DNA of 64,000 bases from Thermodesulfobacteriota bacterium (GCA_036769565.1 DAIPKW010000002.1:9727-73726); one strand, 5' to 3'; counted from the first letter of the stretch, positions 8,979-35,254 are shown. The notes: generated from the sequence alone by a model not told the origin. A program made the numbers and translations.

Positions 8979-8989
8979 GTTAACCCTCA

Positions 8990-9153
8990 TTTTCGAAAAT
9001 CCGAAATCCGAATATCGGGCGTAGCGTCCTCTTAGGACCAATCCGAAACAAATTTTTAAATTCAAATCACCAAAATTTTTAAGATTCTCTTTCGTTTTGA
9101 ATTTCGAAAATTTGAAATTGTTTCGACATTCGAATCTCGTGCTTCGAATTTAT
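8990..9153. repeat. Heptamer-periodic palindromic element, family C, between nuoD and the sfrB-like gene
   Basis: TTCGAAAATCCGAAATCCGAATATC... on the left and ...TTTCGACATTCGAATCTCGTGCTTCGAATTT on the right. Confidence 0.75.
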
Positions 9154-9158
9154 TCTTT

Positions 9159-10331
9159 TTACCGATCGATCTCACCCAACACAATATCAATACTTCCGAT
9201 GGTGGCGATGACATCGGCAATCAGACTTCCCTCAATCATCTTGGGAAGCGCGCTTAAGTTGAGGAAAGAGGGAGGTCGGATTCTCATCCTCAAAGGTTTA
9301 TTCGAACCATCGCTCACAAGATAGAAACCCAATTCCCCTTTGGCAGCTTCGACACTTGCATAGACTTCCCCTTTGGGTGGCTGGAACCCTTCGGATGCAA
9401 TCTTGAATTGCCGAATCAAAGAGGCGATATCGGTCAGGACCATCTCTTTGGGAGGCAGAACCACCCTGGGATCATCAGCGAGAATCGGGCCTTTGGGCAA
9501 ACGGTCCAGGGCCTGTCTCACAATGGCATTTGACCACTCCATCTCCCTCAACCGGACATAGTACCGATCGTAGACATCGCCTACTGTCCCTGTGGGAATG
9601 TCGAATTCGAAATCCTCATAACTCGAATAGGGAAAAACTTTCCTCACATCCCACTTTACTCCGGATCCACGAAGCGTCGGCCCGGTCACACCCCAATTGA
9701 TGGCATCTTCTTTCGAAATGATTCCCACTTCCTTGGTCCGTTTCAACCAGATCACATTCTTTGTCAGAAGCGTCTCATACTCCTTCATGTGGCCTGGAAA
9801 GGCGTCAACAAAATCCTTGATCTTTTTGTCGATCCCTTCTGGAAGGTCTTTAGCAACCCCTCCGATTCTCAAATAGGTTGGGGTCAATCTTCCGCCGGCC
9901 ACCTCTTCGAAGATCCTGAGAATATCCTCCCTTTCACGGAAATTATAGAAGAGCAGGGTCATTGCGCCGATGTCGAGCGCATGGGTTCCAAGCCAGATGA
10001 GATGTGCCGCAAGCCTCTGGAGTTCAGCCATCATCACTCTCAGGTATTGAGCCCGTTTCGGGACCTCAATGCCAAGAAGTTTTTCAACGGCCAGGACATA
10101 GGCCAGGTTATTCCCCATCGCATTGGTGTAATCTAACCGATCCGTGAGGGGAATGACCTGATGATAGGTTCTGGACTCAGCTAATTTCTCAACCCCCCGA
10201 TGGAGGTGTCCGATGTGGGGAGTTGCTTTAACAATAATTTCTCCATCCAGTTCCAATACAAGCCTCAACACCCCATGTGTGGCCGGGTGCTGGGGACCCA
10301 TATTGATGGTCATGAATCGTGTCTCTGCCAT
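9159..10331 (-). CDS. nuoD: NADH-quinone oxidoreductase subunit D
   Basis: NMGPQHPATHGVLRL, DRLDY and C-terminal DIVLGEIDR. No [NiFe]-binding CxxC pairs. Confidence 0.98.
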   Translation of the reverse strand: MAETRFMTINMGPQHPATHGVLRLVLELDGEIIVKATPHIGHLHRGVEKLAESRTYHQVIPLTDRLDYTNAMGNNLAYVLAVEKLLGIEVPKRAQYLRVMMAELQRLAAHLIWLGTHALDIGAMTLLFYNFREREDILRIFEEVAGGRLTPTYLRIGGVAKDLPEGIDKKIKDFVDAFPGHMKEYETLLTKNVIWLKRTKEVGIISKEDAINWGVTGPTLRGSGVKWDVRKVFPYSSYEDFEFDIPTGTVGDVYDRYYVRLREMEWSNAIVRQALDRLPKGPILADDPRVVLPPKEMVLTDIASLIRQFKIASEGFQPPKGEVYASVEAAKGELGFYLVSDGSNKPLRMRIRPPSFLNLSALPKMIEGSLIADVIATIGSIDIVLGEIDR

Positions 10332-10332
10332 T

Positions 10333-10821
10333 TCAGACCTCGGGGACAAAAGGTTTGTCAAAATCCGGTCCTTCGACCGGGAAATCTTTCCTCAGGGGGT
10401 GTCCTTCATAACCATCCCAGAGGAGGATTCTCCTCAAATCGGGATGATTCTCAAAGGTGATTCCATAAAGATCGTAAACCTCCCTCTCAAGCCAGTTCGC
10501 TGCCTTCCAGATCGATTCGACACTGGGCATCGACTCGCCCTCTCCGATCTTCGTCTTCAATCTCAATCGACTGTTCGATTTGAAGGAGTAGAGGAGATAG
10601 ACCACTTCAAATCGGGGTACCTGTGGGAAATAGTCAACCCCGCAGAGATCGGTCAACATATGGTACTGGAGATCGGGTTCCGCATAGAGAAATCGACAAA
10701 TCTCAAAGAGATCCTTCTTCGGTACCGTAATATTGACTTCACCCCGAAAGGTTGTCACCTCCAAGATCGAAGCGGGAAATTTTGCTTCCAACTTTTTAAC
10801 TGCTGGATGAACTTCTGCCAT
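10333..10821 (-). CDS. nuoC: NADH-quinone oxidoreductase subunit C
   Basis: ANWLEREVYDLYGITFENHPDLRRILL...GHPLRKDFP. Confidence 0.98.
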   Translation of the reverse strand: MAEVHPAVKKLEAKFPASILEVTTFRGEVNITVPKKDLFEICRFLYAEPDLQYHMLTDLCGVDYFPQVPRFEVVYLLYSFKSNSRLRLKTKIGEGESMPSVESIWKAANWLEREVYDLYGITFENHPDLRRILLWDGYEGHPLRKDFPVEGPDFDKPFVPEV

Positions 10822-10822
10822 A

Positions 10823-11344
10823 TCAATCTATCCTTTCCACAATCTCTTCTGGGATCAGCCGAACATTCTTTCGATCGGCAAGGGTTTCTGTCTCAATCTT
10901 CTTCTGGAGTTCAACGATTGCTGTAAGGAGTGTCTCTGGCCTCGGCGGACAGCCCGGTACATAGACATCTACTGGAATCATCTGATCCACACCCTGAACC
11001 ACATTGTAGGTCTTAAAAATTCCTCCTGAACAGGCGCAGGCCCCATAGGCAATGACCCACTTGGGTTCTGGCATCTGTTCATAGATGCGTTTGACCATGG
11101 GCGCCATCTTCTTGGTCAGGGTGCCTGCCACAATCATCAGATCTGCCTGCCGTGGAGATGGCCTGAAGACCTCGGAACCAAATCGCGAAATATCCCACGT
11201 CGCCGAACTGGTGACGATCATCTCCAGCGCGCATCAGGCAAGACCGAAGGTGACCGGCCAGATCGAATACTTTCGGCCCCAGTTGACCACTTTATCCAGT
11301 ACAGGCATCAAGGGGGTTTTTTCAAGGTAGGTTTCTATTCCCAT
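10823..11344 (-). CDS. nuoB: NADH-quinone oxidoreductase subunit B, with an in-frame TGA (putative selenocysteine) at 11234-11236
   Basis: The track ORFs 11234..11455 and 10823..11221 are in one frame: ...TGG CCG GTC ACC TTC GGT CTT GCC TGA TGC GCG CTG GAG ATG = [13 protein letters not shown], matching the NuoB GLxCCxxEM motif. Downstream motifs [14 protein letters not shown] and PGCPPRPE are intact. Reads 173 aa from ATG 11344. Confidence 0.93.
11198..11216 (-). promoter_or_regulatory. Putative bacterial SECIS hairpin of nuoB
   Basis: Minus-strand CGUCACC-AGUUC-GGCGACG gives 6 pairs plus one A.C mismatch. The loop starts 24 nt after the UGA and has G at position 2 followed by U, which fits the bacterial SECIS model. 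Confidence 0.6.
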
Positions 11345-11691
11345 TCGAGTGCTCCTTTTTTCCAAATATAGATATAGGCAATGATCAAAATCCCAATAAA
11401 TACGGCCATCGAAACAAAGCCAAACATCTTCAAATCTTTGAAGATGACGGCCCATGGATAGAGAAAGACGATTTCAATATCGAAGATCAGAAAGAGCAAG
11501 GCAATGATATAGTATTTGATCGGGATCCTCCGAAAGGAAGAACCATAGGTCGTCATGCCACACTCGTAAGGTGCCTCTTTAAGCAGTGTCTGCTTTCTCT
11601 GGCCTAAGAGATAAGAGGCGAGAATGGCAAAGCAGGCAAAGATGACGGCTATGGCAAAATAGAAAAGGATGGGAAGATAATCCATTAACAT
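11335..11691 (-). CDS. nuoA: NADH-quinone oxidoreductase subunit A
   Basis: PYECG, KYYIIALLFLIFDIEIVFLYPWAV and WKKGALEW. Confidence 0.98.
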   Translation of the reverse strand: MLMDYLPILFYFAIAVIFACFAILASYLLGQRKQTLLKEAPYECGMTTYGSSFRRIPIKYYIIALLFLIFDIEIVFLYPWAVIFKDLKMFGFVSMAVFIGILIIAYIYIWKKGALEWE

Positions 11692-11779: not shown

Positions 11780-14452
11780 CTATCCCCCATATTTCTCAAC
11801 CCGCACGGTTGAATATTTAAGATCCGGGATCTTCGACTCTGGATCAAGCACCGTATTCGTAAGAAGATTGACCGGTGCCTCGCTAAAGTGAAACTTTGCA
11901 AAGACCACACCTCTTCCAACCCTATCGGTAACCTTCGCTTTTGAAATGAAATCGCCTCTACGGCTGACCACCCTTATCCGATCACCCTCTTTGATTCCAA
12001 GTTGGGTTGCATCGGATGGGTTTATTTCCACGAGGCTTTCAGGAGACATCTCGTTGAGAAGTCTGACTTTACGGGTCATACTGCCCGCATGATAATGGTA
12101 GTAGTCCCGACCTGTGCTTAAGATGAACGGATACTCCTGATCCGGAACCTCGGGTGGAGGAGTGAAATCCACCGGAACAAAGAGCCCTTTTCCTCGAACG
12201 ATTTTGCCTCTATGAAGGATCGGTGTTCCGGGATGATCCTCCGTTGGGCACGGCCACTGCAGGCCACCAGATTCCAATCTGGCATAGGTGATGCCTGCGT
12301 ACTGAGGCGTGACTTTCCGAATCTCTTCGAAGATGGCTTCAGGACCTTCATAATCCATGGAGTAACCCAATCTCCTCGAGATTTCAGAGATGATCTTCCA
12401 ATCTGGCATCGCTCCTTTCGGTCCCTCGACAACCTTTCTCACCCTTTGAACCCTTCTCTCAGTGTTCACAAAGGTTCCGTCCTTCTCGAGGAAGCAGAGA
12501 GAGGGCAAGACAACGTGGGCCATCTGTCCGGTCTCTGTTAAAAAGATGTCCTGGACCACAAGAAGTTCCAGCCCAGCATAGGCCTTCTTAAGATGGGATA
12601 GGTCAGGATCTGTTACCATGGGATTTTCGCCCATGATGTAGAGGGCTTTGATCTTTCCATCCAGGGCCGCCTTGCTCATCTCCACGACCGTCAAACCCGG
12701 CTTTCCTGAAAGAGAGACACCCCATTGGCTTTCGAATTTATCCTGCAACTCTCTTACGGCCACGCTCTGATATCCAGGATAGACCGTGGGCAGACAACCC
12801 ATGTCACAGGCGCCCTGGACATTGTTCTGACCTCTCAGTGGGTTGACACCACTTCCGGGTCTTCCCACCTGACCGCAGAGAAGGGCCAGATTGGAAATCG
12901 CCTTTACCCCATCTGTTCCAGAAGAGTGTTGGGTAATGCCCATGCAGTAAAGAATGGCCGCATTTTTAGCGGAACCATATATCCGAGCGGCCTTAATCAA
13001 CTTCTCTTTGGGAATGCCGGTCACTTGTTCCACAAACTCTGGCGTATACCGGGCGACCTTCTCTTTGACCGCTTCAAAGCCTTCTGTATTCTGTTCGATA
13101 AAGGATTTATTATAAAGGTTTTCTCTGATGATGATGTGGGCCAACCCATTTAACCAGGCAATATCATCTCCAGGCTTGGGTTGAAGCCAGAGGGTGGCTT
13201 CCTCAACCAGATCGATCTTTCTCGGATCAACGACAATGATCTTCGCCCCATTGAAACGGGAACGATGCCTCAAGAGCATCCCGATGACCGGATGGGTCTC
13301 TGTGGTGTTGCTCCCGGTAACCAACAAGACATCGGCCTGCTGAAAATCAGCAAGAGAATTGGTCATGGCTCCAGAGCCGAGGGTGGTGGCCAGACCGACC
13401 ACTGTACTGGAGTGTCAGAGACGGGCGCAATGGTCGATATTGTTCGTGCCGATGGCCGCCCTGATCAACTTCTGGAAGAGATAGTTCTCCTCGCATGTGG
13501 CGCGCGCCGAGGCGAGGCCAGCAATACTGTCAGGTCCATACTTCTCTTTAATGGCCTTGAGTTTGTCAGAGACAAAGCTTAAAGCTTCGTCCCAGCTCAC
13601 CTCTCGGAATGAGCCATTTTCTCGGATCAGAGGCATGTGAAGTCGATCTGGGCTGTTCACAAATTCAAATCCGAACCGTCCTTTCACGCAGAGCACGCCG
13701 TTATTGGTTCCGAGCCCTTCTTTGGTGGTAATCTTAAACACCCGGTTACCTACCGCGTTCACTTCCAGGGAACAACCCACTCCGCAATAGCCGCATACTG
13801 TGGTCACCCTTTTAGCCTGCCACTTCCTTCCTTTGATGGGGCTCACATTTTCAGTCAACGCTCCCACAGGACAGGCTGCGAGACATTCGCCGCAGGAGAT
13901 ACATCGTTCGGGTTTGATCGGCTCAACTCTGGCATTAAAACCGGTTCCCTGAAGATCGAGGACTTCTCTGCCAGCAATCTCTCGGCAGGCACGGATACAA
14001 CGGCTGCAGAGGATGCAGCGATTGGGATGGTACTTGATCGCAGGTGTGGAATAGGTCTTGTACTCTTTGGCAGGTGTCTCCACCTGATACTCGGCTTTTT
14101 GAATCCCATACTCATAAACATAATCCTGAAGATCGCATTCACCACCTTTATCACAGACCGGGCAATCAAGAGGGTGATTTACCAGCATGAACTGGAGGAC
14201 TTCTCTTCGAATCTCCCGAATCTTCGGGGTGTCGGTTTCGATCACCATGCCATCTGTGGCTGGAGTGTTACAAGCAGTGACAGGGTTTTCGAGATCTTTA
14301 ACCTCAACCACACACATCCTGCAGAAACCTGTGGGAATAAGGCTCTCCATGTGGCACAGCGTTGGTATTCGGAAACCGTTCTGCTGAGCAATGCTCAGTA
14401 TTGTAGCTCCCTCCTCCGCCTCAATAGCTCTGCCATTGATTGTAACTCTCAT
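11780..14452 (-). CDS. fdhA: Selenocysteine-containing formate dehydrogenase alpha subunit (Mo/W-bisPGD) with a NuoG-type Fe-S N-terminus
   Basis: The track ORFs 13415..14452 and 11780..13402 join in frame through TGA at 13415-13417: DHCARL-U-HSSTVVGLATT. N-terminal motifs IPTLCH/GFCRMC, HPLDCPVCDKGGECDLQ, CILCSRC, CISCGEC and CGYCGVGC; also LRGQNNVQG. Confidence 0.95.
13386..13402 (-). promoter_or_regulatory. SECIS hairpin of fdhA
   Basis: Minus-strand GUGGUC-GGUCU-GGCCAC, a 6-bp stem with a G-starting loop 18 nt after the UGA. Confidence 0.75.
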
Positions 14453-14523
14453 TGCGATCTTCTCCTCTAAAAATGAAATGCCGCTTCAGGCATCATCTCG
14501 TTGCTATTTTTATTCAAAAGACT

Positions 14524-24168: not shown

Positions 24169-25443
24169 TCAACTCCTTGGGTATCGATGATGCCTTCTTT
24201 CCATGATTCCTAAGCCGCACAAAACAGCCACTGCCGCCGCCCCAGCCAGGAGGAGGAAGGCCAGCTGGTAGCTTCCGGTCTCATCAAAGATGACTCCACC
24301 GATGTAGGCCCAGAATCCTCCACCCAAGAAATGGATGGTGTTCACAAAACCGGTAAGAACGCCGATGGATCTCACTCCATAAAGTTTCCCAATCAGCATG
24401 GGAGTCAGTGGGGCAGTGATCAGATGGGTGAAGCCGAAGAGCCAGGCAAATAGGTAAAGGGAAGGGAGTGTCTTAAACTGAAGCACCAGCAGGTAGAGAA
24501 AGAAACAGAGTACGAATGTCAGGACAATAGGGATCTTATTGCCTATCCGGTCAGCCACAGGCCCTGCCACCAGAACCCCTGCCAAGCTCATCAACCCATA
24601 CCAGCCCAACATATTTCCTGCTGTCTGCGGCGAGACACCATAATCCGTTGCCAGGGGGATCAGGTGGGTGGTGGCAAAATAATCGCCTCCTCCGCAGATG
24701 AACATGATCACCACAAAGAGCCAGTAGGAGCGGGTCTTCATCGTCTGCTTCAAACCGAAATCCTCCTCGGTCACTAGAAAGAAAGGGTTCCCTTTTGTCT
24801 CCGTTTTTCCGATCTTCTCACCTTCCTGTCCCAAAGGTTTCAGCCCAAGGTGATGGGGATCTCCCCTGATCACAAAGAAAGCGATTAAAATATTGACGAT
24901 CAGGATGACGATGCCAATGGAGAGGTACAATGCCCTCCATCCGTAACTCAAAGTAAAGAGGCTGAAGAGCGGTACAAGCGCAAAATGGCCGAACGAATTT
25001 CCAGATAGGGCCAGGCTGATGGCCAGGCCGCGCTTTTTTTCAAACCACTTGCTCGTGACTGTGGCAATAAAGGGAACCGCTGTGCCCGCTATACCGATGG
25101 CGGCTAACACTCCGTAAGAGAGGAAGAACTGGCTGATGGATTGGATGGTTGATGTCAATGCAAATCCGGCCGATATAAAGAGGGACGAGGCGATGATCAC
25201 CCATTTGGGACCATAACGATCATAGAGTCTTCCAGTAAGGATGAGGGCGAAGGCAAAAACAACCATGTTCACGAAGAAGACAAGGGAGACCGCCCCCCGG
25301 CTCCATCCAAATTCTTCGAGCATGGGTTTGAACATGACCCCGAAAGCATACCGGGCGCCGGCGTTGAAAAAGAGAATGATGAATGAAGCAACAACAATAT
25401 ACCACCCATAGAATAGACGATCGTTTTCTAAGAACCTCTTCAT
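24169..25443 (-). CDS. MFS transporter (OFA/MCT-like)
   Basis: About 12 hydrophobic segments; YGWYIV start, GRLYDRYGPK and WFEKKRGLAISL. Confidence 0.88.
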   Translation of the reverse strand: MKRFLENDRLFYGWYIVVASFIILFFNAGARYAFGVMFKPMLEEFGWSRGAVSLVFFVNMVVFAFALILTGRLYDRYGPKWVIIASSLFISAGFALTSTIQSISQFFLSYGVLAAIGIAGTAVPFIATVTSKWFEKKRGLAISLALSGNSFGHFALVPLFSLFTLSYGWRALYLSIGIVILIVNILIAFFVIRGDPHHLGLKPLGQEGEKIGKTETKGNPFFLVTEEDFGLKQTMKTRSYWLFVVIMFICGGGDYFATTHLIPLATDYGVSPQTAGNMLGWYGLMSLAGVLVAGPVADRIGNKIPIVLTFVLCFFLYLLVLQFKTLPSLYLFAWLFGFTHLITAPLTPMLIGKLYGVRSIGVLTGFVNTIHFLGGGFWAYIGGVIFDETGSYQLAFLLLAGAAAVAVLCGLGIMERRHHRYPRS

Positions 25444-25646: not shown

Positions 25647-28592
25647 CTAAATCGTTGAAGCCTGTCTTTCTGAAATCTTCTCCTGTTTGAGACGGGTCTT
25701 GAGCCAGACCTGTAGCCGCTCTTCAAGTGGACCCACCCATTTCTCAATGGAGGCGATATCTCCCTCCACCAGGGCTTTCCGGTGTTCGGGGGTGAGGTCA
25801 TAGGAGGCCAGCACCCCTGCGGGATTTTCTGCCAGGGCAGTGAGGAACTTATTATCCTCTGCTGCCCTTTCGAGCACGGTCAGAATCGCTTTGATCGAAG
25901 AGACTTTGAATTCGGGAATCTTGGCCTGGGGATCGAAGGCTGGATTGGTGAGCCGGTTTGCTGGAGCCTCTCTCCAATGAAAAGCCATGAAGGCCAGGCC
26001 TGGCCTGACCCGATCGGTCTTTTTGGCCTTGGTCTGAACCGCTCCCCTTCTAGAGCTGAGAGAGACCAAATCACCTTCTACGATTCCAAGTCGGCTTGCA
26101 TCTTCAGGGTGGATCTCAACCTGGCTTTCCGGCACCAGTGTTTCAAGAACATGGGATCGGTGGCTCATGCTTCCAGTGTGCCAATGTTCAAGAATCCTCC
26201 CTGTGGTCAACAGCAGTGGATAAGCCGATGTTGGAAGTTCAGCAGGTGGCCGATCATGGACCATATGGAATCTGCCTCGACCTCGCGTGAATTGACCTCT
26301 ATGCAGAATAGGGGTTCCGGGATGTCTTTTGTCCCAGCAGGGCCATTGGAGTCCACTCCGATTGAGACGATCATGCTTGATCCCCCCATATATCGGAGTA
26401 AGCCGCGAGACCTCATCCATGATCTCTGCACTCGAACGGTAGTCCATGGGATATCCCAACCGCTTGGAGATCTCGGCAATGATCTCCCAGTCGAGCTTCG
26501 CCTCACCCGGTGGATCAAGTGCTTTTCGAACGCGCTGGACACGACGTTCGGTATTGGTGAAGGTTCCATCTTTCTCTGCAAAACTGGCTGCTGGCAGAAT
26601 CACATCCGCAAGCTGGGCCGTCTCTGTGAAAAAGATGTCCTGCACGACGAGAAACTCAAGCCTGCTCAACGCCTCTCTGGCATGGTCTAAATCGGGCTCG
26701 CTCAGCATGGGATTTTCTCCCATCACATAGAGCGCTTTCAGCTTCCCATCGTAAGAGGCTTGTATCATCTCTGTGATCGTAAGTCCGGGCTTTTCGCTCA
26801 ACCTCCTTCCCCAGGCTTTCTCAAATTTCTCTCTGACTTGAGGATTGTCCACCCGCTGATATCCCGGGAAAAATACAGGTAAGGCACCCATGTCGCAGGC
26901 ACCCTGAACATTGTTCTGTCCTCGAAGGGGTGAAAAACCCGTTCCCTTTCTGCCCAAATTTCCGGTGAGCATGAGAAGGTTTGCAATCGTCTTCACATTA
27001 TCTGTTCCGGTCGTATGCTGTGTAATCCCCATGCCGTAAAGGACGATGGCCTTTTTCGCCCTTCCGAAAAGGAGTGCCGCTTGTCTGATCTTCCCTTTGG
27101 CAACTCCTGTTAGCGTTTCGACCGTTTTAAGATCATAGGGTTTCAGCGATTCGACAAAAGGCTCAAACTCTTCGCATCGCTCCGCAATAAACCTTTGATC
27201 ATAGAGGTTCTCTGCAAGGATCTCGTGCATCATTCCGTTAAGAAGCGCCACATCCGTTCCGGGCAGATGGTCGAGATGGACCTCTGCGATATCGCAAAGC
27301 TCAATTCGCCGTGGGTCTGCCACGATAAGCTTGGCTCCTCGATGTTTGACCGCCCGTCTGATCTTCCTTCCAATGATGGGATGGCATTCCGTTGTATTTG
27401 AACCGATGACGAAAAATAGTTCGGCGTAATCAATATCCGAGATGGAATTGCTCATAGCTCCATCGCCAAAGGCGGCCAGAGCAGCTGCCACGGTAGAGGC
27501 ATGGCAGAGACGGGCGCAATGATCCACATTGTTCGTGCCAATAACCGCTCTTGCAAATTTCTGAAAGACGTAATTCTCCTCATTGGTGCACTTGGCTGAG
27601 CTGAGAAGTCCGATGGAATCCGGTCCTGTTTGACGGAGGGTTTGAGAGATGGATTTTGCCATACGCTCCAGCGCTTCGTTCCAGCTCACTTCACGAAAGA
27701 CCTTCTCAACATCAACCCCGCTCACATCTTTGGAAACCCCTTCTCTCCGTATTAAGGGCCGGGTCAGCCGATCTTTATGATGAACAAAGTCAAGGCCATA
27801 ACGTCCTTTCACGCAGAGTTCTCCCCTGTTCACAGGGCTCCTCTCGTCGCCTCTCACCCTGACGATTCTGCCAGCTCGAACTCCCAGATGGATGGAACAA
27901 CCCACCCCACAGTAGGGGCAGATCGTTTCGATCTCTCTTTCAGGTACGAGAAGGTGCTTGGGCACCAGGGCTCCGGTCGGACAATGCTCCACGCATTCGC
28001 CGCAACTCTGGCAGATGGATTGAGCGAGGGGTTTATTGCCAAAGGGGCGAATCATCGTCTCAAAACCCCGCTGGCAGAAATCGATGGCTCCAACGCCAAC
28101 GATCTCATCGCACCTTCGTACACATTTTCCACAGAGGATGCACTTGTCCGGCTCAAAATCAAAGGCAGGGTTGGATCGATCCGGTGGTCTTTTCCGTGCT
28201 GTTCTCCTGAGCCGCTCAATCGATCTCTGATCCACACCCACATATCGGGCCACCTTAAGAAGTTCGCACTCTTCGCTCTTATTGCAGAGGAGGCATTCAT
28301 ACGGATGATTGGCAATCATCAGCTCCACCATCGTCCGCCTCATCCTATTGATCTCCTCAGTCTCTGTCTTAACCACCATGCCCTCCTGGGCTGGCGTGGT
28401 GCAGGAGGTGGGCAGCCCCCGCATTCCTTTGATCTCAACGATGCATAAACGGCAAGCCCCAAAGGGCAAAAGAGCAGGGTCGTAACAGAGCGTGGGCACG
28501 TAACGGCCTGTCTTTCGAATTGCCTCAAGAACGGTTGAGCCTTCTGCAACAACCACTTCTTGACCATCAATGGTGAGCTTAATCTTCTTCAT
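25647..28592 (-). CDS. fdhF: Cysteine-type formate dehydrogenase alpha subunit with a ~79-aa C-terminal helical extension
   Basis: DHCARLCHASTV (Cys ligand), N-terminal Fe-S motifs, CPYCGVGC, LRGQNNVQGACDMG. The normal end PEFKVSSIK is followed by an extra domain. Confidence 0.93.
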   Translation of the reverse strand: MKKIKLTIDGQEVVVAEGSTVLEAIRKTGRYVPTLCYDPALLPFGACRLCIVEIKGMRGLPTSCTTPAQEGMVVKTETEEINRMRRTMVELMIANHPYECLLCNKSEECELLKVARYVGVDQRSIERLRRTARKRPPDRSNPAFDFEPDKCILCGKCVRRCDEIVGVGAIDFCQRGFETMIRPFGNKPLAQSICQSCGECVEHCPTGALVPKHLLVPEREIETICPYCGVGCSIHLGVRAGRIVRVRGDERSPVNRGELCVKGRYGLDFVHHKDRLTRPLIRREGVSKDVSGVDVEKVFREVSWNEALERMAKSISQTLRQTGPDSIGLLSSAKCTNEENYVFQKFARAVIGTNNVDHCARLCHASTVAAALAAFGDGAMSNSISDIDYAELFFVIGSNTTECHPIIGRKIRRAVKHRGAKLIVADPRRIELCDIAEVHLDHLPGTDVALLNGMMHEILAENLYDQRFIAERCEEFEPFVESLKPYDLKTVETLTGVAKGKIRQAALLFGRAKKAIVLYGMGITQHTTGTDNVKTIANLLMLTGNLGRKGTGFSPLRGQNNVQGACDMGALPVFFPGYQRVDNPQVREKFEKAWGRRLSEKPGLTITEMIQASYDGKLKALYVMGENPMLSEPDLDHAREALSRLEFLVVQDIFFTETAQLADVILPAASFAEKDGTFTNTERRVQRVRKALDPPGEAKLDWEIIAEISKRLGYPMDYRSSAEIMDEVSRLTPIYGGIKHDRLNRSGLQWPCWDKRHPGTPILHRGQFTRGRGRFHMVHDRPPAELPTSAYPLLLTTGRILEHWHTGSMSHRSHVLETLVPESQVEIHPEDASRLGIVEGDLVSLSSRRGAVQTKAKKTDRVRPGLAFMAFHWREAPANRLTNPAFDPQAKIPEFKVSSIKAILTVLERAAEDNKFLTALAENPAGVLASYDLTPEHRKALVEGDIASIEKWVGPLEERLQVWLKTRLKQEKISERQASTI

Positions 28593-28855
28593 CGGTTTCC
28601 TCTCTTCCTAGCCTTAGAGACTGTGTCTTAATGTGTCTTAATCAGAAGAGACTATTTTCTCAAAAAGGGGAGAAGTGGTCAGGTGAAAGAGATTTAGAGC
28701 GGTTACCTTTAACCGTTCGGATTCAGGCTTTCCGAACATATTAAAACATTCGATTTGATACAAGCTCCGATTCCCTATCATCTAAAACACCCGCATTCTA
28801 AATCTTTGGGACCTGACTCGCTCTCCCCTTTAGCCTATGATGATGAAACAGTTTC

Positions 28856-30706
28856 CTAACAGACACGAATTGCGTGAAATTTGCATGCCTCATAACAGGC
28901 GCCACATTTTGTGCATCGATCTTGTGCGATGGCATGGGGTTTCTTCTTCTCTCCCGTGATCGCTTCAACCGAACACTTTTTCGCACAGGCGCCACAACCA
29001 TTGCAGATTTCGGGATCGATCTCGTAATGGAACAAGGCTTTACATACCCCTGCCTCACACCGTTTCTTCAGGATATGGGCTTCGTACTCAGGGAGAAAGT
29101 AACGAAGGGTCGTTTGCACCGGATTGGGAGCGGTCTGACCCAGACCACAGAGCGAACCTTTTTGAACGGTCTCGCTTACCTCCTTGAGAATCTCGAGATC
29201 TTCGGGCGTTCCTTTTCCCTCGCAGATCTCATTGAGGATGTCGAGCATCTGTCGCGTGCCAAGGCGGCAGGGGATACACTTTCCGCATGACTCATTAGCC
29301 GTGAAAGAGAGAAAATACCTTGGTATATCCACCATACAGGTCTCCTCATCCATCACCACCATACCACCAGATCCCATGATGGAACCCGCTGCTGTGAGCG
29401 ACTCATAATCAACGGGCAGGTCGAAAAGCTCAGCCGGAATGCATCCTCCTGAGGGGCCACCGGTCTGAACCGCCTTCACTCTTTTCCCTTTTCCCACACC
29501 TCCACCAATCTCATAGATGATCTCTTTGAGACGAATCCCCATGGGAACTTCGATGAGACCGGTTCGCTCCACTTTTCCTGCCAGGGCAAAGGTCTTTGTC
29601 CCTTTGCTCTTCTCCGTTCCAAAGCTGGCATACCACTTCGCTCCTTTTTCCAAAATGGCGGAGACATTGGCAAAGGTCTCCACATTGTTGATGTTGGTGG
29701 GATTTCCCCAGAGTCCTTTAATCGCTGGAAAAGGAGGCCTTGATCGCGGCATGCCCCTGCCACCGGCAATCGAAGCCATCAGGGCAGTCTCCTCTCCACA
29801 GACAAACGCTCCTGCCCCTTCTTTGATGTGAATCTCAAAACTGAAACCACTCCCCATGATATGTCGACCTAATAGATTGGCCTCTTCCATCTGGATCAGG
29901 GCTGTCTCCAGCCGCTTAATGGCTAATGGATATTCGGCACGGATATAGATGTAACCTTCGCTGCATCCGATCGCATAGGCTCCGATGAGCATTCCCTCAA
30001 GAACAGAGTGGGGATCTCCTTCGAGCAGGGAGCGATCCATAAAAGCACCCGGGTCTCCCTCGTCCGCATTACAGATGATATACTTTGTTCGGCCGGGCGC
30101 CTTTTTGGCGAATTCCCACTTCATTCCCGTAGGAAAACCAGCACCTCCTCTTCCACGAAGGCCTGAATCCTTGATCTCTTGAATCACCTCTTCCGGAGCC
30201 ATCTGAAGCGCCTGCGCCAACCCGCTGTATCCGCCCCGGGCAATGTAGTGTTCAATATTCTCCGGGTCAATGATACCGCAATTTCGAAGCGCAATCCGAA
30301 CCTGGGGTTTGATCATGGGCAGATCCTCGAAGTGTGGGATCCCATCCACAGGCCCAACGCCAATGAAACAGACAGCCCACTCTGGCTTTGGATCGTCGTC
30401 TTTAAGATAGGCAAGGAGAATCTCTTCGGTCTTTTTGGCTGTGAGGTTTCCATAGTAGATAAAAGGTCCTCCTGGTTTCCGGACCGCCATAATCGGCTCA
30501 AGATAGCAGGTGCCAATGCATCCGACCTGGAGGATGCGACCCAGAAGGTTCATCTGTTTGAGCGTCTGTTTGGCCGCTGCAAATACCTCATCCGCACCGG
30601 CTGCTTTACCGCAGGTGCCCATACCGATCTGGATGAGGGGCTGCTTTAGGTTCTCGAGCGCTCTCCAGTTTTTCTCAGCCCGCTGCTTGATCAATGAAAA
30701 ATCCAT
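28856..30706 (-). CDS. NuoF/HydB(HylB)-like NADH-binding flavoprotein subunit
   Basis: SGLRGRGGAGFPTGMKW, NADEGDPGAFMDR, GGPSGG, SCGKCIPCR, an N-terminal GTCG/GCIGTC [2Fe-2S] domain and a C-terminal 2x[4Fe-4S] domain. Confidence 0.92.
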   Translation of the reverse strand: MDFSLIKQRAEKNWRALENLKQPLIQIGMGTCGKAAGADEVFAAAKQTLKQMNLLGRILQVGCIGTCYLEPIMAVRKPGGPFIYYGNLTAKKTEEILLAYLKDDDPKPEWAVCFIGVGPVDGIPHFEDLPMIKPQVRIALRNCGIIDPENIEHYIARGGYSGLAQALQMAPEEVIQEIKDSGLRGRGGAGFPTGMKWEFAKKAPGRTKYIICNADEGDPGAFMDRSLLEGDPHSVLEGMLIGAYAIGCSEGYIYIRAEYPLAIKRLETALIQMEEANLLGRHIMGSGFSFEIHIKEGAGAFVCGEETALMASIAGGRGMPRSRPPFPAIKGLWGNPTNINNVETFANVSAILEKGAKWYASFGTEKSKGTKTFALAGKVERTGLIEVPMGIRLKEIIYEIGGGVGKGKRVKAVQTGGPSGGCIPAELFDLPVDYESLTAAGSIMGSGGMVVMDEETCMVDIPRYFLSFTANESCGKCIPCRLGTRQMLDILNEICEGKGTPEDLEILKEVSETVQKGSLCGLGQTAPNPVQTTLRYFLPEYEAHILKKRCEAGVCKALFHYEIDPEICNGCGACAKKCSVEAITGEKKKPHAIAQDRCTKCGACYEACKFHAIRVC

Positions 30707-30767
30707 AGCGCACCTCAATCTTTCTCTCTTCAGGTTATCTCATCTTTAAAACCACCCCAAGGGCAAT

Positions 30768-30850
30768 TTATAGCGCAAGTCTTTAGCCCTGCCCGCCTAC
30801 AGGACAGGCAGGTAGGCCTCTCGAAGCAACCCTAAAGGGCTGCGTTACAA
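30768..30850. repeat. REP-like composite hairpin
   Basis: TAGCGCAAGTCTTTAG...CCTGCCCGCC...GGCAGG...GCAACCCTAAAGGGCTGCGTTA, with nested inverted repeats. Confidence 0.55.
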
Positions 30851-30873
30851 TGAAATTTAAAAAATCAGTCAAT

Positions 30874-31383
30874 TTAAGTCTCTCTTGAGCGGATCTCGTC
30901 AATCAACTTCAATGCCCTCGACCGATTCAGGCTTCCGTAGACAGAATCGTTGATCACCATGACCGGTGCCAGAGCACAGGAGCCAAAGCAGGCGACCGTC
31001 TCTATCGTAAAAAGGCCATCCTCTGTCATCTGCCCTGGGACGACCTTAAGATAATCCACCAGTGTGTCCAGAAGCCGATCCGAACCTTTGACATGGCAGG
31101 CTGTTCCCCGACAGACCCGAATGATATACTTTCCAACGGGCTGAAAACGGAACTGGGCGTAGAAGGTCGCCGTTCCAAAGACCTTTGCGGCAGAAAGTCC
31201 AGTGAGACGGGCGATCTCAAGCATAGCCTGTTCCGGTAAAAAGCCAAGCGTCCTCTGAACCCGCTGGAGCATGGGAATCAGTTCACTCGGCCTTCCCTTA
31301 AATTCTTTCCTCATCTCATGAATAAGATGTTCGATCTCCAGCTTGCCTTCTATTGATAAATCCTCACAAATGGCCTGTTCCAT
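30874..31383 (-). CDS. NuoE/HydC-like [2Fe-2S] subunit
   Basis: ATFYAQF, VCRGTACHVKG and VACFGSCALAPV. Confidence 0.93.
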   Translation of the reverse strand: MEQAICEDLSIEGKLEIEHLIHEMRKEFKGRPSELIPMLQRVQRTLGFLPEQAMLEIARLTGLSAAKVFGTATFYAQFRFQPVGKYIIRVCRGTACHVKGSDRLLDTLVDYLKVVPGQMTEDGLFTIETVACFGSCALAPVMVINDSVYGSLNRSRALKLIDEIRSRET

Positions 31384-31440
31384 AGATGCTCCCTTCCTTA
31401 GGATGAATCGCTCGAACTCTTTATTCAGAAAAATAAGTCT

Positions 31441-31551
31441 CTGGGCTAGGGCATGGATGCCTATCTCTTATATCCGTAAGGTCTATGGGCTTTAAATTAA
31501 TAGCCATAACCTTTGCCCAAACTGGCGTCTTTGCCTTTACCTTAACCTAAG
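31441..31551. repeat. Intergenic palindromic repeat, family A (copy 3)
   Basis: CCATAACCTTTGCCCAAACTGGCGTC...TTTACCTTAACC is the reverse complement of the family A core. Confidence 0.7.
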
Positions 31552-31593
31552 AACAATCTTTATCCTTCAAGAATGACACTCCATCAAGAAGGA

Positions 31594-32277
31594 TTACCAG
31601 GCTTCTCGCTCCAGTCGCTTGTAGATGAACATCAGTTGTTCCTCGGTCAACTCCCCAATATTCTTCCGAATCCACTCCAGATCACCGGAAAGAATCGCAG
31701 CCTTTGCCTTACGGGTGAGCCGATATTCTTTCAGGGCTTCTGAACCATTCTCCATCAATTCGCGCCAGAACTCTCCGTCATGATAGGCCCTTTCGAGAAC
31801 CCGGATGACCTCTTCCTTCTGGATCAGTCTCTCTTCATGCGTCTCGGAGATGAGCTTTTCCATGGACTCCCTCTCTTTCTTTTCCAGCGCACCTTTTACC
31901 GCTGTTTTAAATTCATCTTCGGTAAAGGGCTTGCGCAGGTAGTCCGAGACCCCCATCTTTACGGCCTGGACTGCTGAAGCGACAGAGGGGTAACCCGTGA
32001 TAATGACCACATTGGTCCTTGGCCGCTTCTCCCGCACCTCTTGGATGACCTCCATCCCATCCATATCAGGCAACCGAAGGTCTGCCACCAAGAGGTCAAA
32101 CTCCGTTGCCTTAAACTTATCGAGTGCGTCATGCCCTGTTTCAGCGAGATCCACTTCATAGCCTTCTTCACGCATCACCATCTCAAGTCCCTTTGCAACG
32201 TTTAATTCATCCTCCACCAGAAGAACATGGGGCCGATAAGTCGTCTCACTTCGTACGGTCGTTTGGATTGCGTTCAT
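31594..32277 (-). CDS. Response regulator: receiver domain plus a C-terminal helical domain, with no DNA-binding output
   Basis: LLVEDE, LLVADLRLPDMDG (phosphoacceptor Asp) and YLRKPF. The C-terminal 71 aa are homologous to the FdhF extension. Confidence 0.9.
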   Translation of the reverse strand: MNAIQTTVRSETTYRPHVLLVEDELNVAKGLEMVMREEGYEVDLAETGHDALDKFKATEFDLLVADLRLPDMDGMEVIQEVREKRPRTNVVIITGYPSVASAVQAVKMGVSDYLRKPFTEDEFKTAVKGALEKKERESMEKLISETHEERLIQKEEVIRVLERAYHDGEFWRELMENGSEALKEYRLTRKAKAAILSGDLEWIRKNIGELTEEQLMFIYKRLEREAW

Positions 32278-32315: not shown

Positions 32316-32332
32316 AGCAATAGCAATGCCAA
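32316..32332 (-). promoter_or_regulatory. Sigma54 (-24/-12) promoter for the receiver-nuoE-nuoF-fdhF cluster
   Basis: Minus-strand TTGGCATTGCTATTGCT has exact GG-N10-GC spacing and near-consensus TGGCA-N6-TTGC, about 40 bp upstream of an AAGGAGG-ATG. Confidence 0.8.
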
Positions 32333-32427: not shown

Positions 32428-32444
32428 GTATAAAATTTTATACA
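32428..32444. promoter_or_regulatory. Palindromic candidate enhancer (UAS) for the sigma54 activator
   Basis: GTATAAAA-T-TTTTATAC is a perfect 8-bp inverted repeat about 100 bp upstream of the -24 box. Confidence 0.55.
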
Positions 32445-32524
32445 CCTGGAAAGAGTGAAAAAATGATTTTATTGTTGCTTTAGATAATTAGAAGTGTATA
32501 ATAGAATATACAGAGAGAGTATGA

Positions 32525-33792
32525 ATGAGTGAAAAAGTGGAATTTGAGACCCTTTATAGCATTCTTCGGGATATCAGTGCATCGCTCGATTCCGGCGCAC
32601 ATGTTAGAGATGTTATGGAAACCATTGTTATGAAGTCTGCCCAGATGTTCAAGGCAAGTGGCGCTGTGATTCGAATTTTAAATCCCAAGACCCGACACCT
32701 CGATCTGGGAGCTGCATACGGTTTGAGTGACCAGTACCTTTCAAAGGGACCATCATTCCGGGAGGAATCCATAATGGAATTCTGTCGGCAAAACAAAGTG
32801 ATGGTCATCCGCGATATTCTCAATGACCCTTTTGTTCAATACCCTAAGGAGGCCTGGGCAGAAGGGATCCGGATGATGGTGGATGCACCCATTACTTATC
32901 GAGACGAGGTTCTTGGGATACTTCGAATCTATTTTGATGAACCAAAAGAATTTTCTGAAACAGAGCTACAATATCTCATCCTTATTGCAGAACGGGGGCC
33001 GTTGTCATCCAGAGGGCAAAGCAGATCGAGAGGCAAGAATCCCGTTATGATCAGTTAGCCCTTCAAACAGAAAAACTATCGGCCCTGGGCCGAATGGCGG
33101 CTGGCATCGCCCATGAGATCAATAATCCCCTTGCCGGCATCCTCCTCTTCAGCTCAAACCTCTTAAAAAAGGTTCCGCAGGAAGGCCCTTTCAGAGAGGG
33201 GCTTCAGATCATTGTTCAAGAGACTCTCCGTTGTAAAGCCATTATTCAGGACCTTCTCGAATTCTCACGTGCAAACGAGCCCAAAACAACCCCATCCAAT
33301 GTGAATCAGGTGATGGAGAGGGCTCTCCATCTGCTCGCAAATGAATTCAAGCTTCGCCACATTCAGCTCGAATTGGACCTGGCCAAATCGTTGCCGCAGA
33401 TCCTCATTGATGAAAACCAGATCGAGCAGATCTTCGTCAACCTGTTGCTCAATGCCATTCAGGCGATCGAAGAGCAGGGAACGATAACCATCCGAACCTA
33501 TATGAGTTCAAATCGGAAAAATGTGACGATCGATATCGCTGATACAGGATGCGGGATTCCCCCAGAAAATATGTCGAAGATCTTTGAGCCGTTCTTCTCT
33601 ACGAAGTCAAAGGGAACCGGCCTTGGCCTGGCCGTAACCTATGGAATCGTCCAAAAACATGGGGGACACATCTATGCCGACAACCAGCGAAAACAGGGAG
33701 CCCGTTTCGTTGTGGAGCTTCCCATTCCCCTTGGAGTTGATCCAAGAGAAAGACAGAGAGATGAAACCAGCAAAGATCTTAATCATCGATGA
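32525..33792 (+). pseudogene. GAF-domain sensor histidine kinase, split by a 1-nt frameshift (real mutation or sequencing error)
   Basis: The GAF ORF 32525.. and the HisKA/HATPase ORF (AHEINNPL, NLLLNA, DTGCG, GTGLGL) join if the G5 run at 32994-32998 is G6, giving ...IAERGAVVIQRAKQIE...QTEKLSALGRMAAG (422 aa). Confidence 0.8.
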
Positions 33793-35162
33793 TGAACCTG
33801 TCGTCTGTAAAGGATGCCACTTGGCGCTCTCAAACGAAGACCATATCGTTGAGATCTGCATGACGGGCAGAGAAGGGGTGGCCCTCATGGAGCAGGGCGA
33901 CTATGATCTGGTCCTTCTCGATATGAAGTTACCCGACATCGAGGGCATGGAGATCCTTAGAACGATCCATCAAAAGAAACCGAATCTCCTTGTCATCGTC
34001 ATGACCGGCTATTCCACTGTTCAGAATGCAGTCGAGGCCATGAAGTTAGGTGCTTTTGACTACCTCTCCAAACCTTTTACCGATGAAGAATTAATCCTCA
34101 CTGTCCAGAGGGCCATTGAAAAGAAGCGATTGGCGGAGGAAAACCTTCTTCTGCGAAAGGAACTCTTCGAGCGATTCCGTTTTGAAAATATTGTCGGAGA
34201 GAGCCCCAAAATCCTCTCCGTCTTTGAACAGGTCGAAAGGGTTGCTCCGACCGATAGCACCGTGCTCCTCTATGGAGAAAGCGGCACGGGCAAAGAGCTC
34301 TTTGCAGGAGCCATCCATGCCAGAAGCCAGAGGGCTCATCGTCAATTCATTGCCGTGGATTGCTCCACGCTTTCGCCAAGTCTGCTCGAAAGCGAGCTCT
34401 TCGGCCATGTCAGGGGAGCCTTTACGGGCGCGGTTCGGGACAAAGAGGGCATTTTTAGTGTAGCCCATGGAGGCACCCTCTTTATGGACGATGTGACCAA
34501 TCTCAACCTTGAGATCCAGGGAAAACTTTTGAGGGTTCTTGAGACCGGAGAATATAAACCCGTAGGAGCGAGCCACTCTCAAAAGACCGATGTCAGGATC
34601 ATTGCGGCCACCAACAGGGATCTAAAGGCAATGGTCGAAGAGGGACAGTTCCGAGAGGATCTCTATTATCGGTTAAATGTCTTTCCCATCTATATTCCAC
34701 CACTCCGTGAGAGAAAGGAGGATATCCCCAAGCTCGCCTACCATTTTCTCAGACATTTCTGCCGAAAAACGGGGAAGCGGATCGAAGGGTTCTCAGATGA
34801 AGCCCTGGAGAGCTTAATGCAGTACGATTGGCCTGGCAATGTCCGGCAATTGAAGAATGTGGTCGAACGACTGGTGATCATGGCCGACAACACAAAACTC
34901 GATCTGCCCCACCTGCTCGATCAGCTTCAGAGTAGACGGTCCTGGAAGGGTCACCCCATCCCCGAAACCCTCAAAGAACTGAATGCCGAAAAGAAGCGGC
35001 TACTCGAAGAGACCTTCGGTCAAATTCAGAAGGCCTTCCTCATCAATGCCCTCCGGGCTTCGAATGGAAACATCACCCGTGCCGCCGAGAGGGTTGGGCA
35101 TGCAACGGCCCAATTTCTGCGCCCTCCTCAAAAAACACCGTATCTCGGCCAAGGAGACTTAG
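33761..35162 (+). CDS. NtrC-family sigma54-dependent response regulator; a +1 frameshift disrupts the C-terminal HTH
   Basis: Receiver domain, GESGTGKE, GAFTGA, RYDWPGN-type motif. Removing one base at 35096-35099 restores GNITRAAERVGMQRPNFCALLKKHRI with a stop at 35160-35162. As given, the ORF runs to 35185 in the wrong frame. Confidence 0.85.
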
Positions 35163-35254
35163 AACCGATACTTTATTTTCGTTGATTTAATACTATAGCG
35201 ACACTTATGTGGAAAACCTTATATAATCAGCAGAAAGAAGGCACACTACGGTAC

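Follow-up and report, generated by a model that had tools for sequence, protein, structure and literature searches.

In syntrophic and sulfate-reducing Thermodesulfobacteriota, the direction in which electrons flow between formate and CO2 during anoxic carbon cycling is set by formate dehydrogenases (FDH), whose post-translational regulation is, to our knowledge, essentially undescribed. The closest enzymes, FdsABG(D) and the HydABC/HylABC-type bifurcating complexes, have the same subunits (NuoE-like, NuoF-like and NuoG-fused FdhA) in the same gene order as the locus presented here. In LigA, DesB and SonA, a small helical domain acts as a protein-protein clamp, which in DesB is likewise a C-terminal fusion to an enzyme (gallate dioxygenase); we know of no link of these proteins to formate enzymes or to receivers. 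Finally, mycobacterial respiratory complex I has among its structural subunits an orphan receiver-domain protein, MSMEG_2064; in this case a CheY-like receiver is both co-encoded with a NuoE/F/G-related redox complex and built into it (PMC10068793). Here we describe a locus of a Thermodesulfobacteriota bacterium (GCA_036769565.1, DAIPKW010000002.1:9727-73726; this whole stretch of 64,000 nucleotides is called the window) in which an FDH catalytic subunit (FdhA) and a co-encoded response regulator end in the same, homologous C-terminal domain of ~75 residues, referred to below as the tail.

The C-terminal tails of FdhA and of the regulator

The FdhA tail begins at ILTVLERAAEDN (residue ~903 of 981) and the regulator tail at VIRVLERAYHDG (residue ~157 of 227). 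Aligned by BLASTP, the two share 25/69 identical residues (36%) without any gap (E=6e-13), which bears out the gapless homology claimed in an initial reading made by a model from the sequence alone (the sequence-only reading); its coordinates were also right once reverse-complemented, both genes lying on the minus strand. A hidden Markov model (HMM) built only from the regulator tails of other organisms (A3) was run against the 688 six-frame open reading frames (ORFs) of at least 45 aa in the window, and its sole match besides the regulator was the FdhA ORF (40.5 bits, E=9e-12). On these comparisons, the homology of the two tails is robust.

Because the FDH models stop before the tail, TIGR01591 at residue 901 and Pfam Molydop_binding at residue 897, the last ~80 aa of FdhA are an appendage. 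The regulator was correctly described as having no DNA-binding output: Pfam and NCBIfam scans found a receiver (REC) domain at residues 18-128 and the ~75-residue tail only, with no DNA-binding domain detected. The same is true of the label Cys-FDH, as the window enzyme has HCARLCHAS where relatives have HCARL-TGA, its Cys aligning to the TGA/selenocysteine (Sec) position of relatives (L002 and the second FDH of the window). The window FdhA tail departs from the family norm of a single terminal Trp: it ends in the nine residues ISERQASTI (25650-25676), of which the Ile replaces the Trp and eight more residues follow (KISERQASTI).

No Pfam family matches the tail significantly, Frankia_peptide, LigA and NHase_alpha all being under threshold; LigA (PF07746) gives 12.7 bits (E=0.15) on the FDH tail, below its gathering value of 25.3, and no match on the regulator tail. 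The only curated model that matches consistently is NCBIfam NF038399, 'Os1348 family NHLP clan protein' (cut-off 40 bits), which covers the first ~60 tail residues and scores 41.5 bits on the FDH tail, 27 on the regulator tail, 21-43 on standalone and other tails and 21-72 over ten other members, so that the values fall on both sides of its cut-off. The NHLP/Nif11 leader model TIGR03793 reaches 12-13 bits, short of the 50.9 required. A sequence profile search of the PDB (E≤10) returned SonA and LigA-domain chains as best matches, at a weak E of ~0.02. AlphaFold2 models the FDH tail as six short helices (predicted local distance difference test score, pLDDT, 77) and a disordered end of 11 residues, and the best Foldseek match of this model is the C-terminal domain of DesB (3wr8), with a template modelling (TM) score of 0.59-0.60 over 68 columns and a probability of ~1.0 but an E of 0.05-0.4; the SonA chains, SonA being bound there to the methyltransferase SonM, match at TM ~0.5-0.6. 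Besides the fold, the tails have in common with LigA, DesB and SonA the motif L-T-x-E-E-x-x-A-x-x-x-G-D. On account of the NF038399, PDB and Foldseek matches, that is, by sequence profile and predicted structure, the tail is a distant LigA/NHLP-clan helical domain, as the sequence-only reading had suggested. That reading had also called the domain uncharacterised, which needs a qualification: the FDH tail (41.5 bits), though not the regulator tail, just passes NF038399, a family that is named but has no assigned function.

In the regulator model, REC and the tail are separate units with a low-confidence helical linker at 135-145 between them. Two other identities were considered for the tail. 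A FdsD-like accessory subunit was dropped, no FDH or FDH accessory chain appearing in the PDB profile search (E≤10) or among the 50 Foldseek matches listed. A DNA-binding output is unlikely, since the tail is also carried by FdhA, by the formate channel FocA and by GcvH, and since P0216, the one architecture with a DNA-binding domain, has a separate helix-turn-helix (HTH) for it.

Distribution, operon pairing and control of the tail genes

An exhaustive profile search over 1.84 billion representatives returned 445 tail clusters at E≤0.001. Standalone tails measure 74-82 aa and other small tail proteins have an N-terminal extension of 30-90 aa, the fused architectures being REC-tail, REC-REC-tail, FdhA-tail and FocA-type formate channel-tail. 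The relatives of the regulator (1692 at E≤1e-20) are found in a 227-aa REC-tail form and a ~380-aa REC-REC-tail form. The tail lies nearly always at the extreme C-terminus, exceptions being a tail-BON protein and the inner copy in tandem-tail proteins. Its terminal motif is R-L-x-x-E-x-W-COOH, the Trp being the last residue in 93/93 distinct regulator tails, 26/29 standalone tails and 2/2 FocA tails, and in only 19/66 FDH tails. The mixed tail alignment (A2) has no conserved stretch of 7-10 columns, and the loci were retrieved with class-specific alignments. Rare architectures, all on short contigs, were also seen (P0216 in L085, P0215 in L086, P0258 and P0321): P0216 combines a BldC/excisionase-type HTH with two tails and P0215 an Fe-S domain (Fer4_22) with two tails; GcvH is also found with a C-terminal tail, and in one protein a BON domain comes after the tail.

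We sampled 80 species-level loci with the regulator-tail profile and 80 metagenome loci with the FDH-tail profile, 171 being fetched in all (L numbers), and scored every ORF of these loci against both the tail HMM and the window proteins. The 52 informative species-level REC-tail loci fall into two types, 19 of type I and 33 of type II. In type I (the 19 species loci and the window), a GAF kinase and an NtrC-type activator are followed by REC-tail, NuoE, NuoF and FdhA, and FdhA has the tail in 16/17 loci where it is on the contig, including that of the cultured Dethiosulfatarculus sandiegensis (L036). In type II, which includes Desulfosarcina alkanivorans PL12 (L050), the order is activator, REC-tail, kinase, single REC, a stretch of ~4.5 kb and a Sec-type FdhA; in L002, the one locus read through, this stretch encodes HdrA(Sec), MvhD and FdhB. 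The NtrC-type activator gene adjoins the REC-tail gene in nearly all loci.

Wherever a tailed FdhA had its upstream region on the contig, a tail gene was found upstream, in 16/16 genome and 26/26 metagenome loci. This upstream gene is REC-tail or REC-REC-tail in 38 loci (22/26 in the metagenomes) and a small non-REC 'WLWCRLxQEKW' tail protein in the other 4 (L136, L138, L140 and L145). The same small subfamily (74-95 aa) lies directly upstream of tailed FocA in Dehalococcoidales (L083, at 2-229 and 238-1635; L147; L168, at 9669-11362), and no FDH was found within 10 kb of the pair in L168. Pairing is thus seen in three independent forms: FdhA-tail occurs with either REC-tail or the small tail, and FocA-tail with the small tail. 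The tails tend to come in pairs at the operon level, far more often than chance would give. Judged by gene neighbourhood, the tail domain is firmly and tightly linked to formate machinery. The co-occurrence of FDH-tail and receiver-tail genes, which the sequence-only reading had put forward as a check, holds from the side of the enzyme, every tailed FdhA with its upstream region on the contig having an upstream tail gene, and is not general from that of the regulator, 33/52 informative REC-tail loci having an untailed FDH.

Other arrangements complete this picture. Two tails occur in tandem in one polypeptide (P0215, P0216), and L074 has two REC-tail genes in tandem (8741-10234) downstream of an NtrC-type activator gene. 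In L149, L150 and L153, FdhA is followed by a separate tail gene, and in L136, L138, L140, L145 and L170 a non-REC tail gene stands first in NuoEF-FDH operons that have no two-component genes. Among the type I operons, only that of L081 has an FdhA without the tail; there, REC is fused to the NuoE-like subunit (10246-11253; Pfam Response_reg at 33-143 and 2Fe-2S_thioredx at 185-326) and the separate REC-tail gene is still present upstream. This fusion places a receiver covalently inside the complex and speaks independently for a receiver as a physical part of it.

Free ORFs with an FDH-type tail were also observed (L171, 8001-8342; L091, 9821-10237; L092, 9472-9846; L088, 7121-7399). In L171, L091 and L092 they consist of the last ~30 FdhA residues and the tail (~113 aa as called) and adjoin Hdr-FDH clusters (L171, L092) or kinase and activator genes (L091); in L088 and L090 the ORF is tail-only (86 aa as called, P0001) and precedes a gene for a major facilitator superfamily (MFS) transporter. 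All are ~87-90% identical to the window FDH tail and may be either deletion remnants or functional mini-proteins.

The REC domain of the regulator matches PF00072 with its canonical catalytic residues intact, and its acidic pocket (E22/D23), phospho-acceptor (D66), T94 and K116 are at least 90% conserved in 35 relatives (A5). Upstream of the regulator gene lies a sigma-54 promoter core, TGGCAT-N5-TTGC (-24 GG / -12 GC, 32317-32331). The strict sigma-54 motif is present in 60/124 tail-gene upstream regions, all 60 at REC-tail genes and 0 at non-REC ones. The window also has paired GTATA-N6-TATAC palindromes ~100-180 bp upstream of the promoter, a motif for which 0 chance matches are expected in the window. 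Of the 171 loci fetched, 61 have it, type I and type II alike; where inspected, it precedes the REC-tail gene, often in two copies, and pairs 66-70 bp apart are found in L001, L014, L056, L058, L066 and L069 as well. These palindromes are candidate binding sites for the NtrC-type activator, in the layout expected for its action. The locus thus presents the sequence features of a sigma-54 operon, namely -24/-12 spacing, an upstream candidate activator site and an adjacent activator gene; from the shared promoter and activator-site layout, REC-tail and the enzyme are predicted to be expressed together, under the control of the two-component system encoded next to them. The one line of evidence on cognate phosphotransfer is the conserved adjacency of the GAF-HisKA-HATPase kinase.

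Possible roles of the tail

Starting from the tail homology, fold class, architectures, operon pairing, REC-NuoE fusion and conserved promoter and activator sites observed above, we suggest that the ~75-aa tail folds on its own, as a C-terminal helical domain of LigA/NHLP-like fold, and serves as a protein-protein docking module dedicated to the machinery of formate metabolism. The sigma-54 promoter, driven by the GAF kinase and the NtrC-type activator, would co-express REC-tail, the NuoE-like and NuoF-like subunits and the tailed FdhA, and REC-tail would be a second phosphorylation target of the adjacent kinase. It would then be tethered by its tail to the C-terminal tail of FdhA through a homotypic interface, the same interface allowing self-pairing of REC-tail in genomes whose FDH is untailed. 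The receiver would thereby become a detachable regulatory subunit of a NuoEF-type FDH complex, probably of the flavin-based electron-bifurcating kind, and its phosphorylation state would modulate the assembly, oligomerisation or activity of that complex. A docking module with pairing units is the most economical account, because of the operon pairing, the tandem tails, the C-terminal position, the linker and the clamp fold. That the interface is tail:tail, with regulator self-pairing everywhere and regulator-FDH pairing where the FDH is tailed, is the version to which we lean, with a confidence that stays slightly short of even. The docking of the regulator on the FDH proposed in the sequence-only reading is accordingly kept in part: homology, formate linkage, operon pairing, tandem tails and the REC-NuoE fusion speak for it, but the pairing of the regulator tail with the FDH tail cannot be its sole role.

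Several observations weigh against tail:tail docking. The FDH of type II loci is untailed, with no other tail ORF in the locus, and type II is about twice as frequent as type I among the informative REC-tail loci. Between the two locus types, it is in its tail that the regulator varies least (68% identity vs 59% for REC and 37% for the linker). As the presence or absence of an FDH tail makes no difference to this conservation, the regulator tail must have a main partner that the two situations share, and since REC-tail stands mostly beside an untailed FDH, docking to the FDH tail cannot be its sole or ancestral role. Some standalone tails also stand beside untailed enzymes, either before NuoE, NuoF and a Sec-type FdhA (L152, L170) or upstream of HdrCBA-FlpD-FdhBA (L084). 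The FDH tails of the window clade have lost the terminal Trp, so that the two tails are not equivalent. Finally, where relatives of the fold have been solved, the domain is bound to a non-homologous protein (a LigB-type domain or SonM) and not to a second copy of itself.

The same observations fit a scheme in which each tail clamps a shared, non-tail surface of the FDH machinery (such as the FdhA core, NuoEF or HdrA), in the way that LigA caps LigB and SonA sits on SonM, the FdhA tail being a subunit attached in cis, the standalone tail one acting in trans and REC-tail a competitor controlled by phosphorylation. Tails would co-occur because they have a common target and not because they touch each other. 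Such a target would account for the frequency of single-tail operons (Hdr-FDH loci with REC-tail only, L152, L170, L084), for a regulator tail whose conservation is indifferent to the FDH tail, for the interchangeability of FdhA-tail with FdhA plus a separate tail gene (L149, L150, L153) and for the heterologous partners of all solved fold relatives. It does not account for the FocA-tail and small-tail pairs without an FDH within 10 kb (L168); tandem tails, and a small subfamily that accompanies only tailed partners, are simpler as tail:tail pairing, and no candidate binding surface was identified. We consider this scheme unlikely, though a serious contender.

A further alternative keeps REC-tail inside the signalling circuit, where it would serve as a phosphate sink, or would target the GAF kinase or the NtrC-type activator as a connector or anti-activator, and would tune sigma-54 transcription of fdh; the FDH tail would then be a titrating decoy, giving feedback from enzyme abundance, or an unrelated oligomerisation appendage with which only ancestry is shared. 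In Hdr-type loci the REC-tail gene has the kinase, the activator and a further single REC gene around it, which agrees with such a role, as do its place as first gene after the activator sites and sigma-54 promoter in both locus types and its intact REC catalytic residues. It leaves unexplained, however, the non-REC tail proteins encoded first in operons without two-component genes (L136, L138, L140, L145, L170), as well as the tails on FocA and the REC-NuoE fusion, and we judge it rather improbable. A reading of the tails as relics or members of an NHLP/LigA-type system of ribosomally synthesised and post-translationally modified peptide (RiPP) precursors, leader-like and for instance recognised by an enzyme acting on the C-terminal Trp, was rejected as highly improbable: the weak NHLP-clan, Frankia_peptide and LigA matches, the SonA-like fold and the strictly conserved terminal Trp of regulator tails recall such a system, but the proteins end at the domain with no core peptide and no GG cleavage motif, no maturase genes were found in any inspected neighbourhood, and the hosts are large enzymes, channels and receivers.

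Returning to the docking module, its widest form would have matching tails on FDH, FocA, small adaptors and receivers assemble a regulated 'formate metabolon', with the receiver docked on an electron-bifurcating FDH. Response regulators would thereby gain a new class of output, a domain that docks on an enzyme and has its counterpart on that enzyme; we put this assembly forward as a possible extension, about which we have more doubt than confidence.

Locus layout and comparison with known systems

The regulator is the first gene of a four-gene minus-strand operon followed by an MFS transporter gene (Table 1), the order being, from right to left, regulator, NuoE-like, NuoF/HydB-like, FdhA and MFS transporter. 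FdhA consists of a NuoG-like Fe-S N-terminus, a Mo/W-bis(pyranopterin guanine dinucleotide) formate dehydrogenase and the tail (Pfam Fer2_4, NADH-G_4Fe-4S_3, Molybdop_Fe4S4, Molybdopterin and Molydop_binding), and it exceeds the TIGR01591 equivalog cut-off of 666 bits with a Cys at the Sec position. According to Pfam, the NuoF/HydB-like subunit has an extra N-terminal 2Fe-2S domain and a C-terminal 2x[4Fe-4S] domain; a NuoF-like protein with both extra Fe-S domains and a NuoE-like subunit is the composition of the HydABC/Bfu-type module.

Table 1. Coordinates of the tail genes and neighbouring features in the window.
Feature	Position	Strand	Evidence or remark
MFS transporter directly downstream of fdhA, no tail	24169..25443	(-)	Pfam MFS_1
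fdhA, 981 aa	25647..28592	(-)	TIGR01591 856.5 bits, residues 223-901
FdhA tail domain, residues ~899-973	25674..25898	(-)	tail HMM 103 bits; NF038399 41.5 bits; AlphaFold2 model, pLDDT ~85
NuoF/HydB-like flavoprotein subunit	28856..30718	(-)	Pfam Complex1_51K, NADH_4Fe-4S, 2Fe-2S_thioredx, Fer4
NuoE/HydC-like 2Fe-2S subunit	30874..31383	(-)	Pfam 2Fe-2S_thioredx, 162 bits
Response regulator REC + tail, 227 aa, first gene of the operon	31594..32277	(-)	Pfam REC
REC domain, regulator residues 18-128	31894..32226	(-)	PF00072 100.6 bits
Regulator tail domain, residues ~152-227, C-terminal Trp last	31597..31824	(-)	tail HMM 130 bits
Sigma-54 type -24/-12 promoter TGGCATtgctaTTGC	32317..32331	(-)	~40 nt upstream of regulator ATG
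Palindrome GTATAAAATTTTATAC, candidate site for NtrC-type activator	32428..32443		GTATA-N6-TATAC
Second GTATA-N6-TATAC palindrome, 68 bp from the first	32496..32511		motif match
Cytoplasmic GAF-HisKA-HATPase histidine kinase, frameshifted	32525..33792	(+)	Pfam
NtrC-type sigma-54 activator (REC, AAA+, HTH_8)	33641..35185	(+)	Pfam

Some features around the operon deserve mention. The GAF kinase is split in two frames near 32995-33000, whereas related loci encode it uninterrupted, in ~415-435 aa; tblastn of the intact L003 orthologue against the window places the frame switch at residue 161, and this frameshift is either an assembly or sequencing error or the mark of a real pseudogene. A second NuoG-fused FdhA is encoded at 11783-14485 (-); it is of Sec type (NNIDHCARL-TGA-HSSTV, TGA at 13415-13417) and has no tail, so that a Cys-type FDH with a tail and a Sec-type FDH without one coexist in this genome. 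In L001/L015, L009 and L117, this second FDH likewise comes after the tailed one. In L006, L089 and L093 an orthologue of the MFS transporter gene lies downstream of the tailed FDH, and in L088 and L090 it lies downstream of the free ORF with an FDH-type tail.

The ORF matching NuoF is ~1020-1075 aa long, vs ~620, in nine loci with a tailed FDH (L007, L014, L022, L051, L099, L105, L108, L124 and L129). In L105 and L129, fdhA is directly preceded by a contig-cut ORF that contains a Pyr_redox_2 (GltD/NfnB-like) domain, which suggests that the long form is a fusion of NuoF with a Pyr_redox_2-type protein, that is, a different electron-input module. These two loci were therefore not retained as cases of a tailed FdhA without NuoF, the upstream ORF being the Pyr_redox_2 C-terminal part, as fits a long NuoF cut by the contig end.

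A domain common to an enzyme, a formate channel and a two-component receiver offers a concrete handle on FDH regulation. It suggests a function for a domain family that is named but uncharacterised, and may extend the repertoire of response-regulator outputs. The conserved activator site and the sigma-54 promoter define a candidate formate regulon across many uncultured lineages, for which Dethiosulfatarculus sandiegensis SPR (tailed FDH, L036) and Desulfosarcina alkanivorans PL12 (untailed Sec-FDH, L050) are cultured entry points.

Our literature search found no paper linking the tail domain to FDH, FocA or response regulators. NF038399 matches the first ~60 residues of the tails, but most tails described here fall below its cut-off, have an extra C-terminal helix ending in R-L-x-x-E-x-W-COOH and are fused to REC, FdhA or FocA in formate loci. 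LigA, DesB and SonA have the same helical fold; the partners there, however, are dioxygenase or methyltransferase domains. Neither a receiver subunit nor a LigA-like tail at a C-terminus has been described for the FdsABG(D) and HydABC/HylABC-type enzymes, close as they are in subunits. MSMEG_2064 differs in that it binds NuoB via REC itself, its phospho-acceptor Asp being buried (PMC10068793), and in that it has no tail domain and its enzyme no matching one. Already known, then, are the fold class and receivers that act by protein binding; what is new is the conserved regulon, together with a family that is specialised for formate metabolism and turns up in mirrored form on an enzyme, a channel and a receiver. 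By our analysis, MSMEG_2064 would be the nearest precedent for two-component control exerted by direct binding to a metabolic enzyme.

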